Sequence record: MN895435.1
Reading direction: 5' to 3' (one strand)
DNA from: Escherichia phage teqhal
DNA length: 64,000 nt
Part shown: positions 2 through 1,517 of the stretch, piece after piece
Numbering within the stretch: the first letter of the stretch is position 1
Layout of the letters: each line of letters starts with the position of its first letter
Translations under genes and position numbers: made by a program
Notes under the pieces: model-generated
The model's input: the letters and a program-made list of their open reading frames with translations, nothing else
Told to the model about the DNA's origin: nothing
Database searches by the model: none

Positions 2-244
2 TTCGAGACTGTGCTTGATCAGAATTCCAAAGTAAGTGTAATTGGAGGACCCGCTCTACTATATGCTGCGTTACCTTATGCGGATGAAGTAGTTGTTTCC
101 CGCATCGTTAAAAGGCATCGTGTTAATTCAACAGTTCAATTAGATGCAAGTTTTCTTGATGATATAAGCAAGCGTGAAATGGTTGAAACTCATTGGTATA
201 AAATAGATGAAGTAACAACCCTTACGGAATCAGTATATAAATGA
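2..244 (+). CDS. frd: dihydrofolate reductase, C-terminal part (5' end outside window)
   Basis: Open frame from window start ending TGA 242-244; C-terminus ...[17 protein letters not shown] recalled as T4 Frd; position immediately upstream of td. Confidence 0.8.
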
Positions 245-263
245 AATAACGCGTGGCGGAAAT

Positions 264-611
264 ATGAATTTTAATTATTACCCTATTCTATTAGAAAAAG
301 ATGAGAAACAGCCAAAGTGGCAGGGTCCTCAGTTTATTAAAGGCGTTTATCAATTAGTAGTTCCTAAAGACAAGATTTATAGTAGTTGTTTCACTGAATC
401 CGCTTGCAGTATTTTCGGTAATAGTTCTCCGTATTGGAATTTTGACATAAAGCTGGATAGAAATATTGATATTTGGTTGAAAGCTATGGATATTGGTAAT
501 ATCACGTTTGATGAGAATAATTATCATATTATTGGTCGTTTTTCCAAACGCGGTAAAGAATTATATTTCACACCTGAAATTGAGAGAAAATTTGATGCTA
601 AACCGTATTGA
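264..611 (+). CDS. hypothetical protein (115 aa) in an insertion between frd and td
   Basis: ATG-initiated ORF in the track; no motif I recognise; sits where T4 frd and td are recalled to overlap. Confidence 0.55.
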   Translation: MNFNYYPILLEKDEKQPKWQGPQFIKGVYQLVVPKDKIYSSCFTESACSIFGNSSPYWNFDIKLDRNIDIWLKAMDIGNITFDENNYHIIGRFSKRGKELYFTPEIERKFDAKPY

Positions 612-656
612 TTATTTAGCTTCATAAAATGTATTATAATTTATATAAGGTACTAA

Positions 657-1517
657 ATGAAACAATACCAAGATTTAATTAAAGACATTTTTGAAAATGG
701 CTATGAAACCGATGACCGAACGGGCACAGGAACAATTGCTCTGTTCGGTACTAAATTGCGTTGGGATTTAACCAAAGGTTTTCCTGCAGTAACAACTAAG
801 AAGCTCGCCTGGAATGCATGCATTGCTGAGCTAATATGGTTTTTATCAGGAAGCACAAATGTTAATGATTTACGATTAATTCAACACGATTCGTTAATCC
901 AAGGCAAAACAGTTTGGGATGAAAATTACGAAAATCAGGCAAAAGATTTAGGATACCATAGCGGTGAACTTGGTCCAATTTATGGAAAACAGTGGCGTGA
1001 TTTTGGCGGTGTAGACCAAATTATAGAAGTTGTTGATCGTATTAAAAAACTGCCAAATGATAGGCGTCAAATTGTTTCTGCGTGGAATCCAGCTGAACTT
1101 AAATATATGGCATTACCTCCTTGTCATATGTTCTATCAGTTTAATGTGCGTAATGGCTATTTAGATTTGCAGTGGTATCAACGTTCGGTAGATGTTTTCC
1201 TCGGTCTTCCATTTAATATTGCATCATATGCTACGTTAGTTCATATTGTAGCTAAGATGTGTAATCTTATTCCGGGAGATTTGATATTTTCTGGTGGTAA
1301 TACTCATATCTATATGAATCACGTAGAACAATGTAAAGAAATTTTGCGTCGTGAACCTATGGATTTATGCGAATTACAATTAAAATTTCCAGATGAATTT
1401 GATGAATGGGACACAGAATCGCAGGTATTTTGGTTGAGTCAATTTGCAAAGCCTCATAATTTTGTTCTTAACAACTATGTATCTCATCTGCCAATTAAAG
1501 GAAAAATGGCGGTATAA
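657..1517 (+). CDS. td: thymidylate synthase, uninterrupted (no group I intron)
   Basis: 286-aa continuous ORF MKQYQDLIKDIFENGYETDDRTGTGT...; classical TS motifs (PPCH, DLIFSGGNTHIY). Confidence 0.95.
   Translation: MKQYQDLIKDIFENGYETDDRTGTGTIALFGTKLRWDLTKGFPAVTTKKLAWNACIAELIWFLSGSTNVNDLRLIQHDSLIQGKTVWDENYENQAKDLGYHSGELGPIYGKQWRDFGGVDQIIEVVDRIKKLPNDRRQIVSAWNPAELKYMALPPCHMFYQFNVRNGYLDLQWYQRSVDVFLGLPFNIASYATLVHIVAKMCNLIPGDLIFSGGNTHIYMNHVEQCKEILRREPMDLCELQLKFPDEFDEWDTESQVFWLSQFAKPHNFVLNNYVSHLPIKGKMAV

Follow-up and report, generated by a model that had tools for sequence, protein, structure and literature searches.

A conserved accessory gene between frd and td in Tequatrovirus, and a probable deletion origin for the frd/td overlap of T4

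The frd-td interval of phage teqhal

The window analysed here is a stretch of 64,000 nucleotides from Escherichia phage teqhal (MN895435.1), and the locus under study occupies its first 1517 positions, with every feature on the plus strand. The window opens inside frd, the gene for dihydrofolate reductase. Its 3' part fills positions 1..244, where the reading frame terminates GTA TAT AAA TGA with the stop at 242-244; the dihydrofolate reductase label is carried by a 100%-identical record (OZ034683) and by hundreds more. The thymidylate synthase gene td, identified from the annotations of relatives, starts ATGAAACAA and runs from 657 to 1517 (286 aa). Between the two lies an open reading frame at 264..611, which we call o1. 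It encodes a conserved protein of 115 aa, annotated in relatives as a hypothetical of the 'RB32ORF229c' type and characterized here by a match to PHROG 1928, by tblastn and by dN/dS. The first 1000 bases of the window are 100% identical to Escherichia phage vB_Eco_CP and 90-99% identical to several hundred Tequatrovirus records. Beyond td, in the td-nrdA interval, two small ORFs at 1541-1804 and 1758-2084 are homologues of nrdA.2 (DUF5496) and nrdA.1 (DUF4326), as in T4.

A 9-bp direct repeat, TAAATGAAA, has its left copy at 238..246 and its right copy at 654..662, the latter containing the td start codon. Overlapping the frd stop is a mini-ORF of two codons, ATG AAA TAA (ATGAAATAA), at 241..249. 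The spacer 5' of o1 (247..263) includes a G-rich GGCGG at 255-259, and direct reading of this spacer revealed no strong, well-spaced Shine-Dalgarno sequence for o1. A second spacer, of 45 bp, follows o1. It holds a promoter-like element at 615..642, made up of the MotA-box-like TTTAGCTTCA (615-624) and then either TATAAT (635-640) or TAATTT (637-642), and, on direct reading of the sequence, a Shine-Dalgarno-like AAGG at 647..650, 6 nt 5' of the td ATG. The earlier note on this DNA had placed the frd stop, the mini-ORF, the ORF, the td start, both 9-mers, the MotA-box-like motif and TATAAT at these same positions, and re-reading the sequence agreed with it on each.

Could td be transcribed from a promoter of its own? 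In the consensus arrangement a MotA box, (a/t)(a/t)(a/t)TGCTT(t/c)A, is followed after some 11-13 bp by a -10 element, TAnnnT. In TTTAGCTTCA an A replaces a consensus T; the distance is 10 to TATAAT, outside the 11-13 range, and 12 to TAATTT. The window holds 23 instances of the relaxed pattern GCTTYA-N10-13-TANNNT where 8.6 would be expected, and 615..642 is among them. The element is absent from Escherichia phage NHEP29, from T4 and from phages that carry only a different gene, o3, at this junction. We regard 615..642 as a plausible putative middle promoter, and the spacer may give td middle-mode transcription and independent translation of its own. A scan for sigma-70-like sites returned chance levels, a search for terminator-like sites found none, and predicted RNA structure around both junctions was the same as in shuffled sequences.

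Junction forms and the comparison with T4

About 536 records match the frd/td flanks, and their junctions take three forms. Form A, with o1 only, accounts for 355-362 records, or about two thirds, by tblastn at at least 90% amino acid identity; its members include the window, T2, T6, RB5, RB14, RB32, RB51 and RB68. Form C has o3 only, a 68-aa ORF joined to its neighbours by ATGA and TAATG overlaps, and comprises about 135 records, or about a quarter, at at least 90% identity (for example pSs-1, PYps10T and JS98). Form B, the T4 type, has neither gene. A 60-mer spanning the junction retrieves it from 32 of the 536 records, among them T4 laboratory strains as well as RB55, RB59, e11/2, G28, F1, FN, FL12, FL18, HY03, SG1, G2133 and JEP6. 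The window thus carries the majority form of the junction, and the T4 arrangement appears, from the sequences compared, to be a derived minority state.

In T4 (NC_000866) the junction reads GTATATAAATGAAACAATACC: there is a single copy of the 9-mer, frd and td overlap by 4 nt, and nothing lies between them. The earlier note had the T4 frd stop and td start overlapping as ATGA, and the reference sequence bears this out; it also lacks any ORF between the two genes. An alignment of the window, T2, T6, NHEP29, T4 and pSs-1 shows T4 to be exactly 416 bp shorter than the window here, the repeat marking the limits of the missing segment. The segment absent from T4-type phages is 247..662 or, equivalently, 238-653, and the two copies of the repeat, as the earlier note had them at the junction, coincide with the end points of the gap. 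By itself the 9-mer is statistically unremarkable (12 occurrences in the window, 3.4 expected) because it is a typical stop-plus-start boundary motif, and other exact direct repeats of 9-10 bp are present within the same AT-rich stretch of 611 bp. What is not expected by chance is that both copies fall exactly at the ends of the T4 gap, and the significance of the repeat is limited to that. Just inside the ends of the region missing from T4 there is also a perfect 9-nt inverted repeat, TATATAAAT (234-242) and ATTTATATA (639-647). It is probably a chance occurrence, since it is AT-rich and its left arm lies inside frd coding sequence that T4 has kept.

What, then, is the mini-ORF at the frd stop? 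In the earlier note ATGAAATAA was taken for the original td start. In NHEP29 and in the metagenomic contig L021, o1 begins within the frd stop, the two sharing an ATGA (ATGAATTTT; TATAAATGAATTTT), so the mini-ORF is as easily a relic of an o1 start as of a td start. A td origin is therefore not needed to explain it; from these comparisons the mini-ORF at 241..249 is probably a relic of an overlapping start codon of one gene or the other. The spacer 5' of o1 is missing from NHEP29 in the alignment, and the gap between o1 and td is only 15 bp there. Compared with NHEP29, form A is longer by about 23 bases at the 5' junction, where the addition creates ATGAAATAA, and by about 30 at the 3' junction.

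Five form-B junctions were compared base by base (T4, e11/2, HY03, SG1 and JEP6). All five have the td SNPs T45, T60 and T63 in common, which suggests a single deletion that later spread by recombination. Over td positions 16-36 they are like form A and unlike form C. Farther out the flanks are mosaic: the 3' end of frd in SG1 and JEP6, both form B, is identical to that of PYps10T, a form-C phage. Because the junction forms sit on mosaic flanks, the polarity of the deletion rests on outgroups and a few linked SNPs.

Two of the form-B phages have peculiarities of their own. Escherichia phage FL18 (PP400780) is labelled Mosigvirus, yet it has the T4-type junction and flanks 98% identical to T4; either the taxonomic label is at issue or the phage is a recombinant. 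The td gene of e11/2 contains a strongly diverged block at about 175-300, and over its first 540 nt is 84-87% identical to the other Tequatrovirus td genes compared. This mosaic block, a short way 5' of the intron site, is at least as near to the td of NHEP29 as to other Tequatrovirus td genes.

A group I intron interrupts td at this site in T4, T6 and others, and is absent from the td of the window. Eight of the nine form-B phages checked have it (T4, HY03, SG1, JEP6, e11/2, G28, F1 and FL18), with the I-TevI gene reduced to a 168-bp remnant in the last four; the ninth, FL12, has a form-B junction but no intron in td. Introns are likewise found beside o1, in T6, and beside o3, in PYps10T. We considered whether the T4-type deletion had hitch-hiked with the intron and rejected the idea in its strict form, there being no strict linkage in view of FL12 and of introns beside o1 and o3. 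Some co-spread of the T4-type junction with intron homing is possible.

The o1 gene family and its protein

The earlier note called the 115-aa frame an orphan, and this proved wrong. Residues 4-111 of o1 match positions 2-125 of the 126-position profile PHROG 1928 (E 3.1e-36), and tblastn finds the gene in 581 phage records: 362 at at least 90% amino acid identity and 219 at less than 60%. These more distant records belong to other genera, at 25-48% identity, and in them the gene always neighbours frd and td. The gene has a single location in each of the 581 records, and its frame is intact, at a coverage of at least 80%, in 580 of them. It is already known as a feature: it belongs to a PHROG family, and hundreds of genomes list its product as hypothetical. 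In the literature searched we found no published account of its function, nor one of the T4 overlap as a deletion scar.

The position of the gene is conserved too. T2, T6, RB32, RB51 and RB14 have it in the same place with 97-100% amino acid identity to the o1 of the window. In Kanagawavirus, Jiaodavirus, Roskildevirus, Winklervirus and an unclassified Klebsiella phage, an o1 homologue directly follows frd, upstream of td, and in these five lineages it usually overlaps the frd stop. NHEP29 and contig L021 likewise have o1 between frd and td; the L021 protein is 63% identical to that of the window. Most of the phages examined from other genera have a longer ORF (117-144 aa) beside the o1 homologue. 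In Erwinia phage Cronus it lies upstream of the homologue, and Jiaodavirus does not have it. This ORF, o2, matches the o1 family profile (E 1e-12 to 1e-27) and is therefore a tandem paralogue of o1. The complete series frd-o1-o2-o3-td is found in Klebsiella phage phi1_146055 and in contig L021, where all boundaries in the series overlap, and in both of them o3 shares 81-84% identity with the 68-aa ORF found in form C.

Some further observations concern o3 and o1. At the frd-td junction o3 replaces o1 in about 135 Tequatrovirus and Dhakavirus records; it lies at 1707-1913 in L010 (pSs-1), 1741-1947 in L011, 3148-3354 in L006 and 3670-3879 in L021. It is conserved at 79-84% in Klebsiella phages and has 43%-identical homologues in the unrelated Phapecoctavirus (for example phAPEC8). 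Klebsiella phage vB_Kpn_AM.K1 (OR941409, a partial record of 100 kb) encodes a 195-aa protein in which the last 30-40 residues of a Jiaodavirus-type o1 follow an unrelated N-terminal part; it is probably a chimera of assembly or recombination.

How long has o1 been at this locus? Between the window and T2, dS is 0.33 for o1, 0.30 for td and 0.26 for frd. Since the dS of o1 equals that of its flanks, o1 and its neighbours have been accumulating changes over the same length of time, which speaks against a recent insertion. Pairs among the window, T2, T6 and NHEP29 differ by 11-31 synonymous and 0-10 non-synonymous changes in o1, giving dN/dS values of 0.01-0.05: the gene is under strong purifying selection. 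NHEP29 adds a further element. Its o1 is 89% identical to that of the window at the nucleotide level, with a dS of 0.67, far below the flank values of 2.1 for td and 2.4 for frd, which are saturated; at the amino acid level the flanks are 57% (frd) and 81% (td) identical. The high similarity between NHEP29 2501-2848 and window 264-619 begins exactly at the o1 ATG and stops a few bases past the stop codon. This pattern suggests a gene-sized lateral exchange, so that o1 would have passed between diverged lineages at least once.

The protein itself is small (13.7 kDa) and predicted to be single-domain and mostly beta. As the earlier note had said, it bears no recognizable motif: Pfam, NCBIfam and PADLOC give no match for o1, nor for o2 or o3. 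A profile search of 1.84 billion representative proteins yields only 41 clusters for the o1 family; two short fragments aside, every member is a single-domain protein of 95-139 aa. Family alignments show W19, G91, K95 and G97 to be invariant and Q16, G27, Y29, F93 and F102 nearly so; o1 has the conserved Q16, W19, G27 and Y29 and the C-terminal motif G-R-F-x-K-x-G ... F. Searched against PDB sequences, the family profile returns noise alone (E at least 0.1). AlphaFold2 models o1 with a pLDDT of 79 when given 11 sequences, and with a pLDDT of 91 and a pTM of 0.84 when given 43. The elements of the model run b1-b2-b3-helix-b4-b5. It may be a new fold or a diverged member of the nucleic-acid-binding OB folds, which are defined by a barrel of five beta-strands, a helix separating the third from the fourth, and significant structural similarity to known OB folds. 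The only BFVD matches to the model are uncharacterized proteins of T4-like phages, and among the structures compared the confident model has neither a nuclease-like nor a solved neighbour.

We offer some tentative suggestions about function. Rather than an enzyme, it may be a protein that binds other proteins or nucleic acid and is co-expressed with Frd and Td from the pre-replicative nucleotide-metabolism operon. Because T4 has no o1, the gene might be dispensable for lytic growth on laboratory hosts; we hold both suggestions with low confidence. More speculative still, and on balance rather unlikely, is that o1 and o2 form a structurally new family of small proteins tied functionally to phage thymidylate synthesis. 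They might then associate with or regulate Frd and Td within the dNTP-synthesizing complex, or control the operon by binding its RNA. Such a tie would explain why, in one genus after another, the family has stayed translationally coupled in its place between frd and td.

How the T4-type junction may have arisen

The reading we favour, with a probability of about 85%, is that o1 is a real accessory gene of the frd-td interval in Tevenvirinae and that the T4 state is a deletion of 416 bp. The ancestral interval would have read frd-o1-o2-o3-td, a short series of small genes joined by stop/start overlaps; o2 is the longer of the two paralogues, and o3, an ORF of 68 aa, is unrelated to them. With the full series in phi1_146055 and L021 and partial sets elsewhere, a multi-gene ancestor with differential loss is the simplest reading: form A would have kept o1, form C o3 and T4 nothing. 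Form B would have arisen from a form-A genome by deletion of 416 bp between the copies of TAAATGAAA. The geometry of the deletion and the known behaviour of T4 point to replication slippage or microhomology-mediated illegitimate recombination as the probable mechanism. Such an event would have fused the frd stop to the td start, making the textbook ATGA overlap, and homologous recombination could then have carried form B to a few other species. Alternatively, form B could derive from form C through a shorter repeat, AATGA.

The earlier note had offered two readings of the locus: an insertion into the frd/td junction, or an ancestral arrangement that disappeared from T4 when the repeats recombined. 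On the insertion reading, the ATGA junction is ancestral in Tequatrovirus, the o1 cassette came from another phage, and its entry left the 9-bp repeat as a duplicated target site or microhomology. There is something to be said for this. The 9-mer borders the segment exactly, and its left copy resembles a decapitated td start. The Tequatrovirus junctions, with their extra spacers of about 23 and 30 bp, are looser than those of other genera. The NHEP29 comparison (o1 dS of 0.67 against flanks above 2) indicates that o1 can move between lineages, so vertical descent is not guaranteed everywhere; for this reason we leave a small probability on insertion. The exchange does not, however, outweigh outgroup synteny and equal divergence within the genus. 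Five other Tevenvirinae lineages, and L021 as well, have a homologue at this very place. Within Tequatrovirus the diversity of o1 equals that of its flanks, leaving no room for a recent arrival. The T4-type junction is the rare one (32 records), and the five examples compared share SNPs that look derived. Moreover TAAATGAAA is a common boundary motif, with chance repeats of equal length nearby. The evidence thus supports loss from T4, as the second half of the earlier note had it, and makes insertion unlikely. A transposon-like insertion was considered specifically and rejected. A flanking direct repeat, as expected of a transposable insertion, is present in TAAATGAAA, though the motif is generic; there is no transposase or recombinase domain, the only inverted repeats are AT-rich, imperfect and 8-14 nt long, none of them convincing as termini, and the gene occupies one place, in one copy, in each of the 581 records.

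Two further explanations concern the nature of the gene itself. Some records of BASEL and Klebsiella phages (MZ501067 and OR271596) label the product a 'putative homing endonuclease', and a free-standing gene of this kind, patchily distributed by homing, would fit a position between conserved genes, about 550 bp from the I-TevI/td intron site, and a presence/absence polymorphism among close relatives. We consider this highly improbable. Nuclease models, those for HNH, GIY-YIG and LAGLIDADG included, find no match in any of the 43 family members; the PDB and structural comparisons described above give no hint of a nuclease; and the proteins, at 95-139 aa, have no invariant His, Asp or Glu. The synteny is stable across genera, purifying selection is strong, and the presence of o1 is independent of the td intron. 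The label found in these records is unsupported and should not spread. That the frame is instead a non-functional remnant, or a spurious frame in a decaying spacer, might be argued from the survival of T4 without it, the lack of a known domain and the weak Shine-Dalgarno sequence, but this is the least credible of the explanations. The dN/dS of 0.01-0.05 effectively refutes it, and the intact frame in 580 of 581 records, the motifs kept across a diverged family and the confident predicted fold stand against it as well.

Relation to known systems

Because T4 is the reference for its group, segments missing from it tend to look like insertions. Here T4 represents the reduced state, and its frd/td ATGA overlap appears to be a deletion scar and not an ancestral design. 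A gene so strongly conserved in T2, T6 and most relatives, and absent from T4, also provides a natural knock-out in which its role can be tested.

The o1 of the window is the same gene, with no difference, as PHROG 1928 or 'RB32ORF229c' of T2, T6, RB32, RB51 and RB14. In several respects it resembles the seg and mob genes, the free-standing homing endonuclease genes of T-even phages, which are likewise small, lie between conserved genes, are variably present and can be exchanged by recombination. Unlike them, o1 has no nuclease domain or fold, keeps a fixed position across genera and is under strong purifying selection.

The T4 overlap itself (GenBank M12742 / AH001329) was reportedly described by Purohit and Mathews in 1984. 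Both genes, and the boundary sequences GTATATAAATGA ... ATGAAACAATACC, are common to T4 and the window. In the window, however, the genes do not overlap: the 115-aa gene, the promoter-like spacer and a separate Shine-Dalgarno sequence for td intervene. The classical rII deletions of T4 occur between short direct repeats. The proposed frd-td deletion is like them in having a short perfect direct repeat at its end points and in leaving one copy behind; it differs in being a natural, fixed polymorphism, one that would have created an in-phase overlap of stop and start between two genes of an essential pathway.
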